DNA of 64,000 nt from Patella caerulea. Lineage: Eukaryota. The notes beneath the pieces are model-generated. The model saw nothing but the letters and a program-made list of their open reading frames with translations, had not been told where the DNA came from and did not search any database. This document shows, piece after piece, positions 332 to 57,717 of the stretch; the first letter of the stretch is position 1, and the number at the start of each line of letters is the position of its first letter. Both the position numbers and the translations under genes were made by a program. Where the stretch lies: assembly GCA_036850965.1 (NCBI GenBank), contig JAZGQO010000002.1, positions 26,932,901-26,996,900 on the forward strand. The letters are read 5' to 3'.

Positions 332-3300
332 ATGGAAACCTGGGAATTGTACGCCAAGTATTTGGGGGAGCAAGGTTATCAGCTCAACGTTTTCTCTCGG
401 GCCATCTTTGGGAAGGCGATTTATCGGGGAACAAAACACGTCACAGGCACACCAAAACATCTGAACCTGTATTTACACGACAGGCATTACGACGTCATTA
501 CCTCCATGCCCGCCTTTGTAGAAAGGTCGTATTTTTGCGAGACCTGTCAAGTAGGATACGATCATGCCGAGATACATTCGTGTCACGTCATGTGTCATGG
601 ATGTAAGACAGTGGGTCCACCCTGTCCACCTGATCCCAACACAAAGACGTGTTACCGTTGTCATCGTGTGTTTGTGAGCCGCCAGTGTTTCGACAACCAT
701 CTCGCCACCCGTTCCAGAGCCAAGTGCAGTGTATGTTATCGATGGAAGAAATGTGAGAAATGTCAAAAAGAGTGGGACGTCATCAAGGCCAAGCGCAATT
801 TGGAAGAACACCGATGTGGAGAATACGAATGTTCCATCTGCCGAGAGTGGCACACGGCCGAGAAACAGTTTTGTTACATCCAACCACTGAAATCACCCAT
901 CGACATGAATAAAGACCGCAAGACCCAAATGGACAAACTACAGAAATCAACGTTGACCCGCTTCGTCTTCTTTGACTTTGAATGCCAGCAAGATACCGGT
1001 GAACACATTCCCAACCTATGTGTCCTGCAAACCTGCTGTCACTTTTGTATCGACAATCAAGATCCCTGCGAGCATTGCGACACGTACTGGAATCACCAAA
1101 GAGAAATGGTGTTTAAAGGCCCAGACACGCTGGACGATGTAGGAAAATGGTTTTTGCAACTCGCTGCACACGGTACGGTGGTAGATGGTCGGAAACATGA
1201 CAGTCACGAATCGAGTCCCGTGATTGCCGTGGCTCACAACTTTAAAGGTTACGACGGACTGCTGATTTTACAGACGCTGCACAAACATTCCGTGGCGCAA
1301 CCCGAAGTGATTATGAATGGCGGTAAAGCGATGACGATCACTGTCGGTACGGTAAAATTCATCGATTCCCTCAACTTTTTACCGATGGCTTTACGGGACA
1401 TGCCCAAGACCTTTGGCCTGCAAGAACTCAAGAAAGGTTATTTCCCTCACCACTTTAACAGACCGGAGAACGAAGAATACGTGGGCGCCTATCCTCCCGA
1501 CACCGATTACGATCCGGATGGCATGAGTGTGACTGAACGAGAAAAATTTCACGAGTGGTACCAACAACACAGTCACCACGTCTTTGATTTTCGCCAGGAA
1601 ATTCTCGCCTACTGTAAGAGTGACGTCGATGTCCTCCGCCGATGCTGTGGCGTGTTTCGAGAGATATTTCTCATGGACACGGGAATCGATCCCTTCGAAA
1701 AAAGTTTGACCCTGGCCTCTGCCTGCAGTCGCGTGTTACGCACGCACTACATCAAGAAAGACACCCTCGTCGTCATTCCTCGAGCCCTGATGCAAGAGCT
1801 AAAACTTGGTAAGGACTGGCACCGCTTCCAGCCTCGACAACAGTCCAACAAAGCCCTTCGATGGTTGGAATGGGAACAACATCAACAGACCATGGCAGCT
1901 TTCCGAAACCAGACCCCACTACCCAACATTCGACACGCCCGTAACGGTAGTGAATGCCGAGTTGGCCCTTATAGCTTAGATGGCATGGACAAGACCACGG
2001 GTACGGTGTACGAATTTCACGGGTGTGCCTTTCACGGTTGTCCCAAATGTTATCCGGGTCCCGTCCAAGACCTTCAGCATAAACATCCCTACGATCCATC
2101 TCGCAGTATGAGGGACTTGTACCAGCAGACCCAAGAACGTCACCGTCGACTCCAGGAACAGTACGGTATGCAGACCATCCGCGTCATGTGGGAGTGTGAG
2201 ATGGAGGAAGAACGACGCCACGATCCCGAGATGGACGAATTTTTACAAGGCTTGGAAGATCAGCAATGGCCCGCTCCCGAACCACTGATGCCCCGCAACG
2301 CTTTCTTCGGCGGAAGAACCAATGCCATCCAACTGTTGGTGAACGAGTCGGTGGAAGACATGCGCTACATCGACGTGGTGTCCTTGTACCCTTACATCTG
2401 CAAGTACGGTACCTTTCCCATCAAGGAACCCACGATCGTCACACAGCCCGATCAAGACCAGTGGCAACAGTACGAAGGGTTGATCCAGTGTTCCGTCTTG
2501 CCGCCCCGTGGCCTGTACCATCCAGTGCTCCCGTTTCGGAGCAAACAGAAATTGGTGTTTGCCCTATGTCGAAGCTGCGTCGACGAACACATGCAACAAG
2601 GGGAGATTGCCGAATACCAACCGTGTGAGCACACCGACGAACAGCGAGCCTGGGTGGGTACGTTTGTCACCCTGGAACTCAAGAAAGCGGTGACCCTAGG
2701 ATACCAAGTACTGAAATTCTACGAAGTTTGGCACTGGAAAGAATTCAGCACTTACGATCCCGAGGCCAAAACGGGTGGTCTGTTTACTGGGTACATCAAT
2801 CACTACCTGAAGAAGAAGATGGAAAGCAGCGGTTATCCCGACACCTGTCACACCGAAGAAGACAAGACCCGCTTCGTCAACGACGTGTACGACACGGAAG
2901 GTATTCGTCTGGATCCCGCGTCGATAAAACCCAACAAAGGGATGCGGGCGTTTAGCAAGTTACAATTGAACACAGCATGGGGTAAATTCGGACAGAGAGA
3001 CAACTTTCCCAAAACAGAATACATCACGGAGCCCAGCGTCTATTTTGAAAAAATGTTGGACGTGACCCAGACCGTACGAGATGTGCAGTTAGTCAACGAT
3101 AACATGGTCTTGATGGAAACGTTGAAAAAAGAAGAACACGTCGCACCCTGCCCCATCACCAACGTGGTTATCGCCGCCTTTGTCACTGCCCAGGCCCGTT
3201 TGAAACTCTATTCCGTCTTGGAAAAGTTGGGAGAAAGGGTATGCTATTTTGACACCGACAGCGTCATCTACCAATACCACGCCACGTCATGGAATCCCCC

Positions 3301-3673
3301 GGAAGGTTCTAGTTTGGGTCAGTGGAAGAACGAGTTGCCCGAAGATGTCACCATTCGAGAATTTGTTAGCGGAGGGCCAAAGAATTACGCGTACCGCCAG
3401 AGCGATGGAAAAACTGTATGTAAAGTCCGGGGATTCACCTTGAATTACCGTGCCTCCCAGCAGCTGAACTACGCCATCATGAAGGAGAATGTACGGCACG
3501 TCAATCAAAACGAGCCTCTGGTCATAGCCAATCCGTTCAAGATTACCAGATCACGTGACCGCCGTCTTTGGACACGCCCCGAGAACAAAAGATATAAAAT
3601 CGTGTATGACAAGCGGTTTGTTCAATTCAATGACGATGGCCAACCGAGCAACACTTACCCCTATGGATACTGA
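332..3673 (+). CDS. Protein-primed family B DNA polymerase (pPolB) with a Cys/His-rich N-terminal region.
   Basis: Exo I FVFFDFECQ, Exo II HNFKGYDG, Exo III YCKSDVDVL. Pol motif A DVVSLYPY, motif B KLQLNTAWGKFGQR, motif C YFDTDSV. Confidence 0.9.
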   Translation: METWELYAKYLGEQGYQLNVFSRAIFGKAIYRGTKHVTGTPKHLNLYLHDRHYDVITSMPAFVERSYFCETCQVGYDHAEIHSCHVMCHGCKTVGPPCPPDPNTKTCYRCHRVFVSRQCFDNHLATRSRAKCSVCYRWKKCEKCQKEWDVIKAKRNLEEHRCGEYECSICREWHTAEKQFCYIQPLKSPIDMNKDRKTQMDKLQKSTLTRFVFFDFECQQDTGEHIPNLCVLQTCCHFCIDNQDPCEHCDTYWNHQREMVFKGPDTLDDVGKWFLQLAAHGTVVDGRKHDSHESSPVIAVAHNFKGYDGLLILQTLHKHSVAQPEVIMNGGKAMTITVGTVKFIDSLNFLPMALRDMPKTFGLQELKKGYFPHHFNRPENEEYVGAYPPDTDYDPDGMSVTEREKFHEWYQQHSHHVFDFRQEILAYCKSDVDVLRRCCGVFREIFLMDTGIDPFEKSLTLASACSRVLRTHYIKKDTLVVIPRALMQELKLGKDWHRFQPRQQSNKALRWLEWEQHQQTMAAFRNQTPLPNIRHARNGSECRVGPYSLDGMDKTTGTVYEFHGCAFHGCPKCYPGPVQDLQHKHPYDPSRSMRDLYQQTQERHRRLQEQYGMQTIRVMWECEMEEERRHDPEMDEFLQGLEDQQWPAPEPLMPRNAFFGGRTNAIQLLVNESVEDMRYIDVVSLYPYICKYGTFPIKEPTIVTQPDQDQWQQYEGLIQCSVLPPRGLYHPVLPFRSKQKLVFALCRSCVDEHMQQGEIAEYQPCEHTDEQRAWVGTFVTLELKKAVTLGYQVLKFYEVWHWKEFSTYDPEAKTGGLFTGYINHYLKKKMESSGYPDTCHTEEDKTRFVNDVYDTEGIRLDPASIKPNKGMRAFSKLQLNTAWGKFGQRDNFPKTEYITEPSVYFEKMLDVTQTVRDVQLVNDNMVLMETLKKEEHVAPCPITNVVIAAFVTAQARLKLYSVLEKLGERVCYFDTDSVIYQYHATSWNPPEGSSLGQWKNELPEDVTIREFVSGGPKNYAYRQSDGKTVCKVRGFTLNYRASQQLNYAIMKENVRHVNQNEPLVIANPFKITRSRDRRLWTRPENKRYKIVYDKRFVQFNDDGQPSNTYPYGY
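3593..3600 (+). promoter_or_regulatory. TATA box (TATAAAAT) inside the pPolB 3' coding region, 37 nt upstream of the ATG of the death-domain gene.
   Basis: Spacing matches the other TATA-to-ATG pairs in this element. Confidence 0.45.
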
Positions 3674-4475
3674 CTTGCGGGTCTCGGGAACATGGCGAAC
3701 GAACGGAGAAGAGGACGAACCGGCAGAAAATATGATCGAGAAACTTAGACAACGATGGCTCAACTTTCGAGTGTTGAAATGTTTCCTGCCCATTATAGAA
3801 GAAAGGCAACACGAAGAGTGTATCGGCTGCAAGTACGAACATCCCAGTCAGAGATACCACTCGTGTCTGGGACTAGGCGTTTCTTCCATAACGGGTCAAC
3901 CCTCGCACCCCGTGGACGATTACAATCACTACCTTTGGGTGGACGAGCCGAAACTGCAAGACATCGATAACGTGCTAGGCAGTATGATGGACGATCCACG
4001 GGATCAAGTCAAGACGTGGGAGGACGAACAACGATGGCGAGAAGACGTCGACAAAGCCTTGAAAAAGTTCTGGACGGTGGTACCGGGCTTTAAGACCTCG
4101 TTGATCAAACGCAAAGACGAGTTTGTCGAACAGAAAGAAGACTCCATACGCCAGTGGATGGACGGTTTGCCGAAGAAAAAGAAACGATGGTCTCTGGATC
4201 AAATGGATATCAATGTCATGTCCGGCAACATGGGAGAAGACTGGGAATGTATTGGCAGACATCTGGGGATCAGAGAAGCGCGAATCAGTCAAGCCAAGAT
4301 GAGTCATCCCAACAACGCGCGCATGCAAATCTTCACCGTGTTCAATCAATGGCGACAAAAGCACGGTAATGGAGCCGACCTGATGACGTTGTTGGAAGCC
4401 TGTCACGTGAGTGAAGCCTTGATCGATTGGGACGAAGTGAAAAAGTACGTGGACAGCCTGGAAATCATAGACTAA
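3630..4475 (+). CDS. Element-encoded protein with a C-terminal death domain (DD superfamily).
   Basis: The C-terminal ~80 aa (GEDWECIGRHLGIREARISQ..PNNAR...FNQWRQKHGNGADLMTLLEACHVSEAL) aligns without gaps to the FADD/MyD88 death-domain pattern (NxGxDW..(L/I)(A/G)R.L, second W about 36 aa later, A..L..AL). Candidate ATGs are at 3630, 3636 and 3663; the ORF overlaps the pPolB stop. Confidence 0.55.
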   Translation: MTMANRATLTPMDTDLRVSGTWRTNGEEDEPAENMIEKLRQRWLNFRVLKCFLPIIEERQHEECIGCKYEHPSQRYHSCLGLGVSSITGQPSHPVDDYNHYLWVDEPKLQDIDNVLGSMMDDPRDQVKTWEDEQRWREDVDKALKKFWTVVPGFKTSLIKRKDEFVEQKEDSIRQWMDGLPKKKKRWSLDQMDINVMSGNMGEDWECIGRHLGIREARISQAKMSHPNNARMQIFTVFNQWRQKHGNGADLMTLLEACHVSEALIDWDEVKKYVDSLEIID

Positions 4476-4884: not shown

Positions 4885-5409
4885 ATGGCTAGTCAAGCTT
4901 GTTTCTCCTGTAACAATGTCGGACACTGGTATAGAGACTGCCCTGCTCGTTCCCAACAACAGCAACGAAAACCAAGACAAGACAGACCAGCCTACGGTTC
5001 CTATGGAAGTTGTTACCTCTGCGGAGAACCAGGACACTGGGCACCCCAGTGTGGAAAACGAACAGAAGCCCAAAAAGCGAAGAGTGATGAAGAAAGAAAA
5101 GAAACTGTCAAAAGAAAGTGTTACGGAATCAAGAGACCCACCGACGAAAATCACAAGTGCCTCAACTGTGGACAGCTCGGGCACGGCCTGCTCGAGTGCC
5201 AAGAAGAAATCCAAACAGAAAACAACTTTGAAGCCGTTGCCAGTCGCATGTTCGACAACAACATCGACATGCCCAGAGACAACACCCGCAGTCAGCGATA
5301 CTGGTTCTGGTGCGGAGAAGCGTTCGAGCTCTACAGACGATACAAAGAAAAAAAGAAAACAGCTGACGAAGCTTTCTATTCCACCGACTATTCTCCCGAC
5401 TACCAGTGA
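4885..5409 (+). CDS. Nucleic-acid-binding protein with three CCHC zinc knuckles (CX2CX4HX4C).
   Basis: CFSCNNVGHWYRDC, CYLCGEPGHWAPQC, CLNCGQLGHGLLEC. Confidence 0.7.
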   Translation: MASQACFSCNNVGHWYRDCPARSQQQQRKPRQDRPAYGSYGSCYLCGEPGHWAPQCGKRTEAQKAKSDEERKETVKRKCYGIKRPTDENHKCLNCGQLGHGLLECQEEIQTENNFEAVASRMFDNNIDMPRDNTRSQRYWFWCGEAFELYRRYKEKKKTADEAFYSTDYSPDYQ

Positions 5410-5722
5410 AAACGGTGAAACTTCGAACGGTGAAATCCCGAAGACGGCTGTCCTCTTGTTGGCAGAGAAGGAAGCAGAAAGTTTTTCCCGAGCACTCATC
5501 CAATATGCGGGCCCGAGAGATATGACCGAAGTCTTGTCGTATCCCCCTTGTTTCGATATGAGTGAATGGATACCCGTCGTCGTCACGTTTGCTGAAGTGG
5601 AAGACTGGCACCCACACGACACGATGCAGAAGCTTTTGGGACATGTGTATTGGATTCCTCGCGTCCTGAGAAATGTACCCTGGGTGAGACAAGAGATCCT
5701 GAAGAGAGAACGCGATAACTAA
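5410..5722 (+). other. Protein-like ORF continuing past the CCHC ORF stop in the +1 frame (C-terminal part of the 4916-5722 ORF). Possible frameshift or spliced C-terminal extension of the CCHC protein.
   Basis: Non-random sequence (…EVEDWHPHDTMQKLLGHVYWIPRVLRNVPW…) fills the otherwise ~460-nt gap before the next promoter. Confidence 0.3.
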
Positions 5723-5869
5723 TTTTTTCTTTTCCTTTGTATGATATGTTCTATTGAATGTTCTTTTCCTTTGTATGATATGTTTGTTGCATTGAATGTT
5801 CTTTTTGTATTTTTAGTAAAATAAATTGTGTTCTAATTTCACTCCATGTCTGTTGTTCTGGCGCGAAGG

Positions 5870-5877
5870 TATAAAAG
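5870..5877 (+). promoter_or_regulatory. TATA box (TATAAAAGG), 43 nt upstream of the ATPase ATG. A poly(A) signal AATAAA lies just upstream (~5821).
   Basis: Direct read. Confidence 0.5.
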
Positions 5878-5912
5878 GCAGGGGAAAAGGGAATGGGGGA
5901 AAACAGTGCAAG

Positions 5913-6524
5913 ATGGATGTGACGTTCAAACATCCCTTTACCATGTTAGTCAGTGGTCCAACGGGTGTTGGGAAAACGGTCTTTGTGCAGAAGTTTCTTC
6001 AAGCGTCCCTGTTCGACGTCCCTCCCCAACGTATCGTGTGGGCTTATGGCGAATGGCAAGAGAGTTACGATCGCTTTCCCTACACTTATGTCAAAGGTTT
6101 GACGGATATTGACGACGTGATGGGTCAAGTCAAAGGTCCACAAGTCTTAGTCGTGGACGATTTGATGGGAGAAGACACGGAGATATTGCAAAAGTGGTTC
6201 ACGAAAAAGAGTCATCACCACGACACGAGTGTCATTTACATTGTGCAAAACTTGTTTGACAAGCAACAGCGTACCATCAGTCTGAATGCTCATTACTTGG
6301 TCTTGTTCAAAAATCCCCGAGACGCCTCGCAAATTGGTGTGTTGGCCCGTCAGATGTACCCTTCCCGTTCCAAGTATATGCAAGAAGCTTATGAAGATGC
6401 GACGAGTACCCCTCGCAGTTACTTACTCGTTGATTTGAAGCCCGACACACCCGAAGCTTTGCGACTGAGATCCAACATTTTACCCCAAGAGGAACCACCC
6501 ATCGTCTACGTCCAAAAAGTATAA
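5913..6524 (+). CDS. P-loop ATPase, putative genome-packaging ATPase (A32/IVa2/FtsK-HerA-like).
   Basis: Walker A GPTGVGKT, Walker B VLVVDDL, downstream YIVQN. About 204 aa. Confidence 0.6.
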   Translation: MDVTFKHPFTMLVSGPTGVGKTVFVQKFLQASLFDVPPQRIVWAYGEWQESYDRFPYTYVKGLTDIDDVMGQVKGPQVLVVDDLMGEDTEILQKWFTKKSHHHDTSVIYIVQNLFDKQQRTISLNAHYLVLFKNPRDASQIGVLARQMYPSRSKYMQEAYEDATSTPRSYLLVDLKPDTPEALRLRSNILPQEEPPIVYVQKV

Positions 6525-6527
6525 AAG
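6520..6527 (+). promoter_or_regulatory. TATA box (TATAAAAGGGGG), 45 nt upstream of ATG 6565.
   Basis: Direct read. Confidence 0.5.
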
Positions 6528-6564: not shown

Positions 6565-7518
6565 ATGGCTCGTACGAAGAATACGCAGAGGAAACACCCA
6601 CCTCCCACCCTTCCCAGGGCGACGTTCCCGACGTTGGCACCGGACCTTCGTGATCCCACGGTACGAAGTCAGACTCGCCCGAGAATGAGGGCCCCCAGAA
6701 CACAGTGGTCACCTCCCTCGTTGACACCACCCACGAGTCCCATGTCTCCTTTACCGGCCACACCACCACGTTTCACCTTACCGGTCACACCTCCACGTCC
6801 CTCGTCACCACCTTCCCCTGCTCGGTCTCTCTCCCCGATCTTTCGCAGACCACGAAGAGAAAAGAAGAGTTCTATGAAAGGACTCAAGTCCTTCATTCGC
6901 AAGTTACAACATCTGACTCCCGATATGGCTTATGGGCAGTTGGTCAAGAATACGGGCCGGGCACGTATTGGATTGTTGCAGTGGTTCAAGTTGGCGGCCA
7001 ACCATTTGCTGAAGGGTAACATTCAGCCACTGCACGCTCAACACAAGAAATGGGTGGAACGAAATCGACAAGTGTTGACCCAACTGACGGAGAGAAACAT
7101 GCCGACGACCGAAAAACTCTCCCTGATCATGAAACCTGGGGGACGTGGATTTTTTGGGGGTGTGTTGATTCGTATCTTGCTGCGATGGAAGGAAAGGCTG
7201 CAAGAGGAAAGAAACAAGAAACGAAATCAATTCGTTCGACGGACCGCACAGCGCGGAAGGGGACTGAGTACCGAAGAATTGAACAAACATCGAGCGTTGC
7301 TTCGCAAACTGAGTAATGTTCCACCCGACGTCAAACGGCGACTTGTCGATCAACAGGGTGGGGCCATCGGGGCATTGCTGGCCATGGCCCTCCCGGCTTT
7401 GGCCCCCTTGGTATCTAATCTATTGGGTGGACAAAAGGGTGGTAAACATCCCTTCCTTAGAAGGCACGATAGAGCAAACGCTATGGCTGCCGAGCTATCT
7501 AAACTATTTGGTGGATAA
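6565..7518 (+). CDS. Pro/Arg-rich putative virion core protein whose N-terminus resembles the histone H3 tail. C-terminal Gly/Ala-rich hydrophobic segment.
   Basis: N-terminus MARTKNTQRK versus H3 MARTKQTARK. PPxP repeats, RRPRREKK, and GGAIGALLAMALPALAPLVSNLLGG near the C-terminus. The ORF-track start at 6553 is TTG; the first ATG is 6565. Confidence 0.5.
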   Translation: MARTKNTQRKHPPPTLPRATFPTLAPDLRDPTVRSQTRPRMRAPRTQWSPPSLTPPTSPMSPLPATPPRFTLPVTPPRPSSPPSPARSLSPIFRRPRREKKSSMKGLKSFIRKLQHLTPDMAYGQLVKNTGRARIGLLQWFKLAANHLLKGNIQPLHAQHKKWVERNRQVLTQLTERNMPTTEKLSLIMKPGGRGFFGGVLIRILLRWKERLQEERNKKRNQFVRRTAQRGRGLSTEELNKHRALLRKLSNVPPDVKRRLVDQQGGAIGALLAMALPALAPLVSNLLGGQKGGKHPFLRRHDRANAMAAELSKLFGG

Positions 7519-36025: not shown

Positions 36026-37528
36026 TACTATTCAAAAAAAGTAGGGGATATTTGATTTTTAAGTGTTATTAAAGTCACCTAATGAAACTGACGAAGAAAC
36101 AAATGACAAAATGAAATGAAGTTCACATTCATCGATTTATTCCAAATGATCGTTAGACTAAGTAAGGCACAGACTGACCATTATAAGGGTAAAATGATAC
36201 CCGGGGTCAAACAGCAAAGTTACCACAGCATCACAACAAAGTCAGTAACAGGTAAATCCTCCTCTGTTTGCCAAACAAGCATTGATCCGACGTGGCATAC
36301 TCCTAATGAGACGTCTAAGGTCATTTTGGTCCAGATTGTCCCATTCCTGTTGCAACGCAGCAGCAAGTTCTTGGACATTGGCAGGACATTGTTGACGTTG
36401 ACGTAACCTCTGTCCAAGCATGTCCCAGACATGCTCAATGGGGGAGAGGTCGGGACTGTGGTGATGTTATGTTGTTGGAGGTAACCTGTAACGATCCTGG
36501 CCCTGTGACATCTTGCGTTGTCATCCTGGAAGATGAAACGGCGGCCATGACGTCGTGCAAACGGCACAACATGGACTGCCAAGATGTTGTCCCGGTAGTA
36601 CTGGCCTGTAACACGCCCTGCAACAACATGTAAAGCCGTTCTTCCAGCAACAGTGATGCCTCCCCACACCATAACAGAACCACCCCCAAATCGATCATGT
36701 CTCATAACGTTAACGTCTTGGAAGCGCTCGTTTCGACGACGCCACACCCGCCTACGTCTGTCCAAAAAATCAACAGTGAACCTTGACTCATCTGAAAACA
36801 TCACATTGCTCCAGCGTCGATTATCCCAGTGTTGACAATTCCTACACCAACGACGTTTTGCCTGAATGTGATGATCTCTCAAACAAGGGATCACGCGACG
36901 ACGCCGGGCGCGAAGGTGACCCCTATGTAGTCGATTCTGAATCGTCTGGCCACTCACTCTAACACCAGTGTCTGTTTGAAGACGAGCGCTGATCTGATTT
37001 GCTGTGATGGCACGATTTCTCAAGGTCAAGGTACGGATAAATCGATCCTGGGCTTGAGTTGTCGCCCTTGGTCGACCTGAGCGTGGTCTGTCCTGTACAG
37101 ATTGTGTATCACGGTATCTGGACCATAGCCTACTTATGACAGACTGAGAAACATTCATCGTCTGCACCACAACCGCCTGTGTTGTGCCGATCTGTAGCAT
37201 GCCAAGGGCACGTAACCTTTCATTTTGGGTAAGCCGAAAATTTGTTTTCTGGTCACTAAAACAATTAAACTGATGTTTCCACCCTGGAATTCATTGCCAC
37301 AATGACTGTAACATTCAAAGTCAGAGTCGTGCAAATCTTGGGTTGGACCCCCATGATGATCCCAAGCATCACCTGCATTCCATGCGGTAGCTATTGGTGC
37401 GTTTGGGCGTCACATTTAACTGGAAATGTTTCTTCTGTTAGGTTCTATAGTGACTTTTTTCGTAGTCATTTGCATATTTTAGTATTATGCCCCCAAAATC
37501 AAATATCCCCTACTTTTTTTGAATAGTA
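36026..37528 (-). mobile_element. Tc1/mariner DNA transposon (~1.5 kb) with ~37-bp TIRs (TACTATTCAAAAAAAGTAGGGGATATTTGATTTT) and TA target-site duplications.
   Basis: Left end TA|TACTATTC… at 36024-36062. Right end …GAATAGTA|TA at ~37492-37530. Confidence 0.8.
36220..37200 (-). CDS. Tc1-family DD34E transposase, near-intact. A frameshift near 36460 places the third catalytic motif (SPDLSPIEHVWD) out of frame.
   Basis: VMFSDESRF (D1), FQDDNARCH (D2), and DLSPIEHVWD in another frame ~34 aa after D2. Confidence 0.75.
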   Translation of the reverse strand: MLQIGTTQAVVVQTMNVSQSVISRLWSRYRDTQSVQDRPRSGRPRATTQAQDRFIRTLTLRNRAITANQISARLQTDTGVRVSGQTIQNRLHRGHLRARRRRVIPCLRDHHIQAKRRWCRNCQHWDNRRWSNVMFSDESRFTVDFLDRRRRVWRRRNERFQDVNVMRHDRFGGGSVMVWGGITVAGRTALHVVAGRVTGQYYRDNILAVHVVPFARRHGRRFIFQDDNARCHRARIVTGYLQQHNITTVPTSPPLSMSGTCLDRGYVNVNNVLPMSKNLLLRCNRNGTIWTKMTLDVSLGVCHVGSMLVWQTEEDLPVTDFVVMLW

Positions 37529-46733: not shown

Positions 46734-47244
46734 ATGGAACAATTTAACGAAATTCAAGATAAACTCGAAAAAGCCATTGAAAAAGATGACACAAATGCAT
46801 CTACAGATAAAAGCAACTCCAATAAACCCAAAACAGTTATCAAACCTGACCCAACAATCAGAGAAAGACTTGCAGAAATAATACATTCACAAAAATTCCA
46901 CATTGCTGTCGTGGTACTTGTCGTCTTAGATTGTATCCTGGTAGTTGCAGAGTTGCTCATTGACTTGGATGTAGTAAAACTGGAAGATAAAGAAAATCAT
47001 GACGCCCCCAAAGTTCTTCATTACCTCAGTATAACAGTTTTGTCTTTGTTTATGGTAGAAATTGGTGTCCGTGTTTTTGTTATGAGACTAGAATTTTTCA
47101 AGCATAAGTTGGAAGTTTTTGATGCGATTGTTGTCATTGTGTCATTCATACTTGACATTGTGTTCCGTAATCAAGAAGGTTCGGCAACTGGTGTTGGTTT
47201 ATTGGTTGTATTAAGATTGTGGCGAGTCACCAGAATATTAAATG
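46734..47244 (+). CDS. HVCN1: Voltage-gated proton channel Hv1 homolog, coding exon 1 (N-terminus and S1-S4 voltage sensor). Preceded by acceptor …tttcag| at 46730, donor AATG|GTAGAT.
   Basis: [50 protein letters not shown] and S4 LRLWRVTRILNG, versus human FHYMSITILVFFMMEI…[26 protein letters not shown]…LRLWRVARIINGI. Confidence 0.85.
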
Positions 47245-47915
47245 GTAGATATATTTTAATCATCTTGAATGTTACTATAGTATGTATCAATTTAAGGCAG
47301 ATTTCATTTCTGCAGGCAATATCAGCTAATCCCAACAAGTGTAAGGATGAAGTCCTTGTGTATACTTACAAGTCCTAGGACCAGATAATTAAGTGTTTAA
47401 CTTTTTATTTTTTTGTAAGAATAAATAAAGTCAAAGGTCAAAGAAATTAAAGCCGTGTTTTTTGCAGACATTTCTTTAATATATTGAATGATTTATATCC
47501 TCCATATCATCTCCAATATAACCAAATCATAAAATATCTGATCTTCGGGTAGTTATGGAGGAGTGGATACCCATGGGGAAAATATGGCATAATTAAAGAA
47601 CATTCATCGCACCAAGTATTCACATGTTTAGCCTTTTTGTGGGGCAAGGGCTCTTAAGTCCTCCAAATTCTTTGAAACATTGAACATTCCCTTCAAAACA
47701 GAACAGAGCTACTCTTGCCCTGACTAAATTCTATCAAATGCTTAGGATCAAGTCTAATTACAGGTTGTTCAAGCTGTGATGATTTATATTTTTTCAAGTT
47801 GTCAGATTTTTAAGAGTGCGGCACAGAACATCTTCTCCCTTTCTCAATATCGCAACTATCATATATCTGAAAGTGTGAATGGCTTTATTGTAATGTTGTT
47901 TGTTATATTTTACAG

Positions 47916-56476: not shown

Positions 56477-57160
56477 GTAAAAATTTATTTTAGTATTTAC
56501 TACATCCACCTTTGTTTGAAAGCAATATTTACAATTAATAATATGGGACGGAGTACATTATAACATGAACCTTATAATATTATTAGGTTCATGATTTAAA
56601 TTCGAATTAGCACCACTGAGGCAATATACCTAACCAATGTGGATTTCCATCATGAGAGAATTAGATGGTTCAAGCATGTATTCCTGCCATTCCAGCATGG
56701 GAGTACAGCTACTTGCAAGCCTTATTTTTGTGCCTTTGCAGCCAAAATCCAATTCTGTGCTCACCTTAATTTCAATAGCCAAACAATCATTGAAAAAATC
56801 TCAACAACTGGAGCACTAACTGGGATCTGCAGAGCTCATAAAATTTACTTTCACATATAATATCGGTCTTTTAAAATGTTTTTCGACAGGGGAATACATG
56901 GATAATAGGAAATGATGACATAAGCACTTTTTGAAAAGTGCACAGAGTTATATATTTATTCTGTTATTTAAATTAAACATTGACGTGGTTCCTCCTTGAG
57001 ACAAGCCAAAAATATATTTACTCCCACATGAAATGTTAGCATATTCAAATTTTGCAACTGGGGAATACATGACAGATAGGAAGTGATGACATATAACTTT
57101 TTGGGAATGAACACTGGGTTTTATTAATGGATATATGTAAGTTTCTTTTTATTTTTGCAG

Positions 57161-57717
57161 GTATGAAGATTCATACAATTTCACTCAGGCCAAATGTTAT
57201 GTATGGAGAAGGAGATCCATATTATGTCACAACAGCTCTTAGGAATGCACGGGATAATAATGGTGTACTGATACGTGTGGGTGATGGAAGTGCACTATTT
57301 CAACAAACATATGTGGGTAATGCTGCTTGGGCATTTCTTTGTGCAGATGCAGCACTAAAAAATAATCCATCTCAGGTTTCTGGACAAGTGTTTTTTGTGC
57401 CAGATGATACACCACTCCAAAATACATTTACTTTCATGAACTATTTTCTAAAAGATCAGAATCTAAATCTGTCTCGGTTCTATCTGCCATGGAAATTTGT
57501 ATATGTGACATTATATTTTATGGAGCTGGTTCTGAAGGCGCTAAAGCCTCTGGTAAAACTGAATCTCCCAGCTCAGTCATGTAGTGTTAAATATATTAAT
57601 ATGAATCTGTACTTTAGTCCACAGAAATCAAGACAATTGCTGGGATACAAACCATTTTATTCTCCTCATCAGTCCTTAGAGAAATCAGCACTATTTTATA
57701 AAAACTTTCCATTATAA
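57161..57717 (+). CDS. 3beta-HSD-like gene, terminal exon (stop TAA 57715-57717).
   Basis: Acceptor atttttgcag| at 57160. LRPNVMYGEGDPYY / YVGNAAWAFLCA / GQVFFVPDDTPLQNTFTFMNYFL / LGYKPFYS versus human LRPMYIYGEGS / VGNVAWAHILA / [22 protein letters not shown] / LAYKPLYS. Confidence 0.85.

Follow-up and report, generated by a model that had tools for sequence, protein, structure and literature searches.

The window analysed here is a stretch of 64,000 nucleotides from the limpet Patella caerulea (contig JAZGQO010000002.1, positions 26,932,901 to 26,996,900 of the forward strand). Its first ~13.5 kb, with a GC content of about 50%, are filled by a Maverick/Polinton/adintovirus-like element whose genes all lie on the plus strand and whose left end is located outside the window; the AT-rich remainder has a GC content of 27-43%. 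The present analysis concerns one gene of this element, which encodes a very basic, core-type protein with an N-terminus resembling that of histone H3. The following features were located at this gene:

6520-6527 (+): TATA box TATAAAAG of the core-protein gene, 45 nt upstream of the ATG and overlapping the stop codon (6522-6524) of the preceding ATPase gene
6565-7518 (+): complete coding sequence of the basic core-type protein, 317 aa plus stop, from the list of open reading frames (ORFs)
6565-6594 (+): H3-like N-terminus, counted without Met as A1 R2 T3 K4 N5 T6 Q7 R8 K9, read directly
6595-6873 (+): disordered Pro/Arg/Ser/Thr-rich tail, residues 11-103; block means of 45-64 in the predicted local distance difference test (pLDDT) of AlphaFold2
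6874-7263 (+): helical domain, residues 104-233, including a long basic helix; for most of the domain the AlphaFold2 pLDDT is about 90 or higher
7132-7161 (+): near-invariant KPGGxGF(F/L)GG loop inside the helical domain
7270-7431 (+): pX-like C-terminal module, residues approx. 236-289, with two short helices, QQGG and the hydrophobic helix AIGALLAMALPALAPLVSNLLGG
7420-7431 (+): LLGG, residues 286-289, the sole strict adenain consensus inside the protein (regex scan)

H3-like N-terminus, start codon and promoter

Positions 6565-6594 read ATG GCT CGT ACG AAG AAT ACG CAG AGG AAA and are translated to MARTKNTQRK, followed by CAC CCA (HP) up to position 6600. The likeness to the H3 N-terminus MARTKQTARK, on which the earlier note had built its proposal of histone-tail mimicry, was borne out, with eight of the ten residues identical and Q5N and A7Q as the differences. 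The 30-mer at 6565-6594 occurs once in the window, with 0 matches expected from shuffles, and the tail's own composition gives a chance of ~7e-6 for R-T-K-T-R at fixed positions, before the Ala at position 2 is added. This figure is not decisive across a genome-wide scan, and the match is regarded as beyond chance because it is conserved across lineages.

Six lineages were compared, namely the window, the TARA metagenome contigs L001 and L003, the read-archive contigs L002 and L005, and Lottia gigantea (L006), with 46-62% protein identity between the divergent lineages and the window protein. A GTATAAAA(A)GG box is located 33-45 nt before the ATG in five of the six loci (window, L001, L003, L005 and L006); L002 carries a TATATAAAG box in its place, and the upstream gene there is not the ATPase. 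The leader between TATA box and ATG is not conserved among the six loci. In all of them MARTK[N/H]TxR begins at the first ATG after the box, which in the window is ATG 6565 in a good Kozak context (A at -3, G at +4). The earlier note had named a true start at a downstream Met as an outcome that would overturn its proposal; with the conserved TATA box placed for ATG 6565 and this ATG being the first one in a good context, the upstream start is well supported. The core-protein gene thus appears to have its own TATA-box promoter, with translation predicted from ATG 6565.

Conservation and selection on the N-terminal tip

The core protein is 99% identical to the P. caerulea protein KAK6171663, and its cluster comprises 11 paralogous gene models on different chromosomes. 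All ten P. caerulea paralogues with an N-terminus read MARTKNTQRKH, with substitutions located elsewhere in the protein, so that the expected conservation in sibling copies was found. Conservation in related elements was found in part: all six limpet-group lineages start with MARTK[N/H]T-x-R, while about 70 distant homologues are devoid of the whole tail. A1, R2, T3, K4, T6 and R8 are invariant in the six lineages, and all six are the H3 residues at the same register; R/K or T/S exchanges do not occur at these positions. The replacements within codons 2-10 all fall at H3 positions 5, 7 and 9, and the three tip positions that vary in the lineages are those differing from H3. Among the residues that the earlier note had singled out, R2, K4 and R8 are therefore invariant, but the K9 equivalent varies (K/S/T/L).

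The synonymous codons at the invariant residues vary (CGT/AGA/CGA/CGC for R2, ACG/ACA/ACT/ACC for T3, AGG/CGT/AGA for R8), so that the tip is conserved at the level of the protein and not of DNA or RNA. In Nei-Gojobori counts, synonymous sites were saturated with a proportion of synonymous differences (pS) of 0.63-0.93, and the proportion of nonsynonymous differences (pN) in the rest of the tail was 0.19-0.40; the ratio of nonsynonymous to synonymous rates (dN/dS) of the tail was about 0.1-0.3 where calculable. The 103-codon extension is open in six of six lineages and in the ten paralogues, and because pN lies well below the saturated pS it is taken to be translated and constrained. On these grounds the tip is very probably a selected N-terminal short linear motif.

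Two apparent counter-examples were rejected. The gene model of the L002 protein (P0008) had used a downstream Met, and the true in-frame ATG at L002:916 gives MARTKNTKRT (MARTKNTKRTQPPPGLPRAVFP). The protein P0009 is encoded on the short contig L004, where positions ~466-495 read ATG GCA CAC ACA ATC AAC ATT ACT ACC TAA (MAHTINITT*) behind the conserved GTATAAAA(A)GG box; this copy carries a premature stop after nine degenerate codons, and a new start lies about 70 nt downstream of the degenerate N-terminus. As a separate observation, about 26 nt of N-terminal coding sequence (AGAACGAAGAACACG...) are tandemly duplicated just before the ATG in L002 (~890-941).

A scan of IMG/VR DNA for M-A-R-T-K-[N/H]-T-x-R gave 14 matches, of which none belonged to the core-protein family and three were real H3 genes. 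These genuine histone-fold H3 genes (L014 4548, L019 5526 and L015 2955) start with MARTKHTARK or MARTKNTVRK, and are located on contigs classified as viral, two of them labelled GVMAG or long viral contigs. MARTKNTVRK is also the sequence of the first 10 residues of the L003 core protein. These genes show that real H3, too, accepts changes at positions 5 and 7. A continuation of the H3 likeness past residue 10 was considered and rejected: P16-R17 are in register in four sequences, but in L003 and L006 the register is lost through insertions.

Architecture of the core-type protein

The protein has an isoelectric point of 12 with 62 Lys and Arg residues versus 16 Asp and Glu residues, and residues 1-103 contain 26% Pro and 16% Arg. 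Its description as a Pro/Arg-rich putative core protein thus stands with respect to composition and charge, and the core role is suggested by the transitive pX match described below. The AlphaFold2 model was generated with a 33-sequence alignment. Residues 1-101 are without secondary structure in this model, and the helical domain is modelled at 102-233 with more helices at 236-287 and 301-315. The tail contains the conserved motifs LPRAxFP, APDLRDPTxRxPTRP and TPPxxPxSPLP and, additionally, a basic cluster RRPRREKK. Within the helical domain, which is common to 76 representative proteins, W140, F141 and G192-G199 are near-invariant.

The C-terminal module reads ...RRLVDQQGG and then AIGALLAMALPALAPLVSNLLGG, with a helix predicted at 268-287; it therefore contains a GG protease-type site and, after it, a hydrophobic helix rich in A/G/P/L/I close to the C-terminus. 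Positions 224-273 of the core-protein family profile match protein P0065 (E 5.6e-7), which in turn scores 26.1 bits against Adeno_PX (PF05829; cut-off 25), and for P0081 an E-value of 0.006 was obtained. Direct matches to PF05829 were not found at E<=10 with the window protein or with its C-terminal 67 aa. The module is thus linked to adenovirus core protein pX by a transitive sequence match, and the name core protein is a reasonable, inferred one.

The adenain cleavage motif has been defined as L(LR)GG / (MIL)XGG-X (bioRxiv 10.1101/341131). The LLGG site is kept as PLLGG in L001 and L005. Due to the fact that the strict consensus was found only at residues 286-289, where cleavage would be predicted, the H3-like end is expected to be present on the mature protein.

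Pfam searches at E<=10 with the whole core protein and its sub-regions gave nothing meaningful, a search of PDB sequences with the family profile gave no match at E<=10, and Foldseek comparison of the AlphaFold2 model (good for residues ~110-260) with PDB and BFVD gave no match with E<0.1. Homology to histones was rejected on the same basis, with no Pfam histone match at E<=10, no PDB match and no histone among the Foldseek matches, and with the likeness ending after residue 9-10. The label GasderminX from the adintovirus paper could not be confirmed and was not used because no fold match was obtained with Foldseek.

Distribution of the family and the abalone homologue

Exhaustive searching of 1.84 billion representatives with the family profile yielded 76 family members. 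Those other than the limpet group and one abalone protein start at the helical domain and have their low-complexity basic region at the C-terminus. Since the distant homologues have no tail, the H3-like tail is regarded as a lineage-specific addition of the gastropod lineage and not as a general feature of adintoviruses. Many of the proteins P0013-P0068 end in (A/M/L)RF(S/T)PL after a long Lys/Ser/Pro-rich C-terminal region, and the limpet proteins carry P(M/I)SPLP in the N-terminal tail; in evolution, the low-complexity region may have moved from one end of the protein to the other. No relatives were obtained from profile-guided scans of IMG/VR and of JGI metagenomes, and a search with an alignment of the N-terminal tail, in which Pro-rich words dominated, recovered Lottia copies only.

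The abalone homologue (Haliotis rufescens XP_048255230; P0042, L021 10001-10957) is syntenic, being located after an ATPase gene and a CATAAAAGG box, and represents the sole lineage besides the limpet group with an N-terminal extension. It starts with MGQRRKQVHP (N-terminal peptide GQRRKQVHPTRG) ahead of a ~165-residue S/P/Q-rich extension and contains an exact RRKQXXP, the N-terminal RbAp48 (NuRD)-binding motif of FOG-1, SALL1 and BCL11A/B (PMC3020727). According to bioRxiv 10.1101/303537, the same top face of RBBP4/7 is bound by FOG-1 and histone H3. RRKQXXP is matched by the abalone protein alone and not by the window protein, which reads ARTKNTQRKHP, and when relatives of the abalone protein were sought, it was its own sole match. 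In common with the FOG-1 motif are the basic N-terminal peptide and, in abalone, the exact RRKQXXP; in contrast to it, the limpet protein reads ARTKN and the abalone motif lies one residue further from the N-terminus than that of FOG-1. The abalone motif is treated here as a lead toward RBBP4/7, with a weight below that of the other evidence.

Genes of the surrounding element

The other genes of the element in the window are as follows:

332-3673 (+): protein-primed family-B DNA polymerase (PF03175, E 9.8e-40)
3555-4475 (+): Death-domain ORF (PF00531, E 3.9e-10)
4885-5409 (+): CCHC ORF with three zinc knuckles (PF00098, E 2.9e-10)
5826-6524 (+): putative P-loop packaging-type ATPase, 75% identical to the syntenic L001 gene
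7848-8537 (+): ORF without assignment
8575-9578 (+): rve integrase, frameshifted (ORF 8679-9578; PF00665, E 3.5e-11)
9489-9578 (+): chromodomain-like integrase C-terminus (PF00385, E 2.4e-4, under the Pfam cut-off; faint in L003)
9869-10896 (+): penton-like gene, capsid candidate ORF, no Pfam match
10896-11366 (+): small basic ORF, 39% identical to L001 gene g8
11341-12708 (+): 455-aa capsid candidate, no Pfam match
12662-13216 (+): putative adenain-like maturation protease (ORF 12611-13216), presumably the enzyme that processes the core protein, 64% identical to the last L001 gene

The ATPase ORF gave sub-threshold P-loop Pfam matches only, including Pox_A32 (19.5 vs 22.8 bits) and FtsK_SpoIIIE. 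The match of the adenain-like ORF to Peptidase_C5 (PF00770) is likewise sub-threshold (E 0.13, 12.4 vs 21.3 bits), with the His/Asp/Cys motifs recognized by eye and without a PDB match. At the integrase C-terminus the aromatic-cage positions F, W and Y are kept (by eye), so the element may encode a methyl-lysine reader in addition to the H3-like tail. In the small basic ORF 10896-11366, repeated YKGG/YRGG motifs precede an amphipathic stretch rich in Lys, Ala and Val. Its product may be a membrane-active virion protein of the cupiennin/pVI type, an idea with no database match behind it.

Compared with L001 by tblastn, the integrase (~8769-8793) and the penton-like gene (~10126-10177) each change frame once. 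Probably the window copy is decaying or the assembly contains indel errors, with the core-protein ORF remaining intact. Inverted repeats were not found in the window, the left end of the element lying outside it. The accessory region upstream of the core-protein gene holds a Death-domain gene or a BIR/IAP gene in related elements (window 3555-4475 (+), L002 647-895, L001 37-684 and L005 1386-2000, in L001 and L005 directly before the packaging ATPase), and cell-death modulators appear to be swapped among element lineages. The CCHC ORF (also present in L005 at 353-862) resembles retroviral nucleocapsids and yet is located within a DNA element; it is overlapped by a longer ORF in another frame (4916-5722).

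About 1.2-1.5 kb past the stop of the protease gene at 13216, the last gene of the element, a tandem satellite is located at ~14700-16250, with a unit of about 140-146 nt in at least 7-8 copies of 60-86% identity. Further along the window, a Tc1/mariner-type transposase ORF was found at 36220-37200 (-) with HTH_Tnp_Tc3_2 and DDE_3 matches, as were likely host exons at 46734-47378 (+) and 57127-57717 (+) of an ion-transport protein and a 3-beta-hydroxysteroid dehydrogenase-family protein, respectively.

Comparison with known histone mimics and core proteins

Viral histone mimicry, cellular N-terminal H3 mimicry and histone-like adenovirus core proteins are already known. The class of H3 tail mimics (H3TM) is defined by iM-Z-R-X-K at the N-terminus, that is, an initiator Met followed by A/G/S/C/T/P/V, with Arg at position 2 and Lys at position 4 after processing; it comprises 48 of 20,996 human proteins and is enriched in chromatin binders (PMC8166343). 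Examples are VRK1, BCL11A/B, SALL1-4, FOG1/2, TSHZ and MEF2 (Chen et al. 2021, PMC8166343). The peptides of all seven H3TMs tested on a protein domain array bound H3K4me3-interacting effector domains, and a number of them, unmethylated, bound NuRD (PMC8166343). The limpet proteins fall within this definition, with Ala as residue 2 in six of six lineages and ten of ten paralogues and with M-A-R-T-K invariant. Shared with H3TMs are the Met followed by a small residue, R2 together with K4, the position at the extreme N-terminus of a protein taken to be nuclear and associated with nucleic acid, and the maintenance of the motif within the family. In contrast, H3TMs are cellular transcription factors and kinases, whereas the limpet protein is that of a virus-like mobile element, and the limpet match is longer, as it also includes T3, T6 and R8. 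Binding to PHD, Tudor and NuRD modules is known for H3TM peptides and would apply to the limpet tip by analogy.

The closest viral precedent is the adenovirus core protein VII, for which an N-terminal AKKRS histone mimic is described in PMC6028506 (citing Lee 2003 and Avgousti 2016). It is likewise a very basic core protein with an N-terminal H3-like motif on the mature protein, and it comes from a related virus lineage. Adenovirus and the limpet element both encode a family-B DNA polymerase of the protein-primed kind; the adenain-type protease and the pX-type core module of adenovirus have putative counterparts in the limpet element. Homology of the window protein to protein VII was not detected in Pfam and PDB sequence searches. 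Moreover, the N-terminus of protein VII results from adenain cleavage, whereas that of the limpet protein would result from Met removal, and AKKRS is a looser match than ARTKxTxR. Core proteins of adintoviruses and adomaviruses are pX-containing fusions cleaved by adenain (PMC8502044; bioRxiv 10.1101/341131). The pX/mu precursor, GasderminX, PLA2X and LO6 resemble the limpet protein in having a basic helix, GG, a hydrophobic Ala/Gly/Pro/Leu helix, an LLGG site and the element context; unlike the limpet protein, none of these proteins has a reported H3-like N-terminus, and the limpet link to PF05829 is transitive. Similarity to gasdermin or PLA2 was not found in the core protein with Pfam and Foldseek.

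Other viral histone-mimic motifs are 226-ARSK-229 of influenza A H3N2 NS1, ARKS of SARS-CoV-2 ORF8 and the H4-like N-terminus of the yellow fever virus capsid (PMC6028506, PMC11738798). These are also short histone-tail-like motifs in disordered regions of viral proteins. NS1 and ORF8, however, are non-structural proteins of RNA viruses, in which the motif has no free alpha-amine because it is C-terminal or internal, while the limpet tip is the true N-terminus of a core-type protein of a DNA element in the exact H3 register. Among the papers of the library searched, none was found to link Mavericks, Polintons or adintoviruses with histone mimicry, and a search on MARTK gave nothing relevant.

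Interpretation and alternative explanations

By analogy with these systems, the tip could well act as a histone-H3-tail mimic, a reading that is favoured here tentatively. Histone H3 shares the first four residues of the tip and has an unblocked N-terminus. An Ala at position 2 allows removal of the initiator Met (a rule cited in PMC8166343), and because residue 2 is Ala the protein is expected to expose a free A1-R2-T3-K4-N5-T6-Q7-R8. In the proposed mechanism, methionine aminopeptidase would strip the Met and leave a free ARTK end on a disordered, Pro/Arg-rich tail of ~100 residues. The core-type protein would coat or condense the viral DNA, with the tail projecting from the protein-DNA complex in the manner of a histone tail, and the ARTK end could dock into host modules that read the free H3 N-terminus in its unmodified or K4-methylated state. 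The favoured dock would be the top pocket of RBBP4/7 (RbAp48) in NuRD/PRC2/CAF-1, with PHD fingers and WDR5 as alternatives; as the single most likely target RBBP4/7 is named by analogy, and that it is the actual one is rather unlikely. Docking would couple the viral genome, or the free protein as a decoy, to the host chromatin machinery. A still bolder and quite improbable extension is a working H3 "tail code" on a non-histone coat, in which the host would write on K4, R2 and T3, RBBP4/7 (in NuRD/PRC2/CAF-1), PHD fingers and WDR5 would read, and the abalone RRKQxxP would be an independently acquired route to the same pocket of RBBP4/7.

Several observations weigh against mimicry. About 70 homologues, from other molluscs (oyster K1QA51) and from metagenomes, do without the N-terminal tail, the H3-like tip has been lost in the L004 contig, and there is no conservation of K9, a key residue for many H3 readers. 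The tip is one of three or four tail blocks of similar conservation, so that H3 mimicry cannot be picked out from conservation by itself. The role in the virion core is connected to pX by a transitive and not a direct match, the abalone RRKQxxP is a single sequence noticed post hoc, and past the statement that a conserved motif equals H3 at the constrained positions everything is analogy.

A somewhat doubtful but quite possible alternative is that the H3 likeness is coincidental and that the tip serves docking to the capsid interior or the ATPase, DNA contact, or nuclear or nucleolar targeting. N-terminal peptides of adenovirus pVI and pVII bind inside the hexon, basic N-termini are frequent in viral core and capsid proteins, the equally conserved LPRAxFP, APDLRDPTxRxPTRP and SPLP have no histone counterpart, and the distant homologues need no H3-like tip. 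Furthermore, the weak M-Z-R-X-K pattern is present in 0.23% of human proteins and will therefore be matched in any large scan. A generic electrostatic role or a nuclear localization signal would, however, tolerate R/K and T/S exchanges and register shifts, of which there are 0 in six lineages; nuclear import could use the separate cluster RRPRREKK, and there is no adenain site near the N-terminus to free a propeptide. All six constrained residues, and no others, equal H3 in the exact register, with a composition-based probability of about 1e-6. That the first ~10 codons were instead captured from a host H3 gene and persist as a functionless neutral relic is the least probable of the explanations considered. 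The opening 11 nt (ATGGCTCGTAC) look like those of a typical animal H3 gene, and Mavericks take up host genes, as the Death-domain, BIR and CCHC genes in these elements illustrate. A neutral copy would have decayed, however, whereas six residues are invariant with synonymous sites saturated; the rest of H3 is absent beyond residue 9-10 (no Pfam or PDB match), and a stretch of ten codons is too short for descent to be either inferred or denied.

A start at the internal Met104, with the upstream 103 codons as a 5' leader or an occasional extension, is very unlikely. In its favour, the helical domain forms the N-terminus of the distant homologues, five of the six lineages carry a Met near position 104, and L004 combines a stop after nine codons with a later start; on the other side stand the open extension with its pN well below pS, the position of the TATA box relative to the first AUG with its good Kozak context, and the absence of the internal Met in L002. 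Leaky scanning may yield both isoforms, and L004 and the distant homologues show that the protein can exist without the tail. Similarly low is the probability that the tail is read by the chromodomain of the element's own integrase, which would tether the integrase to viral DNA coated with core protein. The C-terminal segment of the integrase does resemble a chromodomain (Pfam Chromo, E 2.4e-4), with F/W/Y of an aromatic cage recognized by eye. However, this score lies under the Pfam cut-off, and chromodomain integrases are usually taken to target host heterochromatin. Chromodomains of the HP1 type read ARK(me)S-type sites, but the limpet group has K, S, T or L at the K9 equivalent and no Ala at position 7, and because neither the K9 nor the A7 equivalent is conserved this explanation is disfavoured.

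Biological significance

Mavericks, Polintons and adintoviruses are widespread integrating DNA viruses of animals, and how their genomes are handled, silenced and integrated after nuclear entry is poorly understood. A selected tip in H3 register on a core-type protein provides a concrete molecular handle on this biology. Even if the likeness is coincidental, a family of mollusc Maverick proteins that had no annotation before has now been given a domain layout and a conserved N-terminal motif. If the tip is a mimic, viral histone mimicry would extend from adenovirus protein VII and a few proteins of RNA viruses to endogenous virus-like elements of invertebrates, and the H3TM class, so far described for cellular proteins only, would extend to a virus-like element. 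Should the tail moreover be written and read like that of H3, viral DNA would be regulated, silenced or guided in its integration as pseudo-chromatin without nucleosomes, and N-terminal capture of RBBP4/7 would be a recurrent strategy of gastropod Mavericks.

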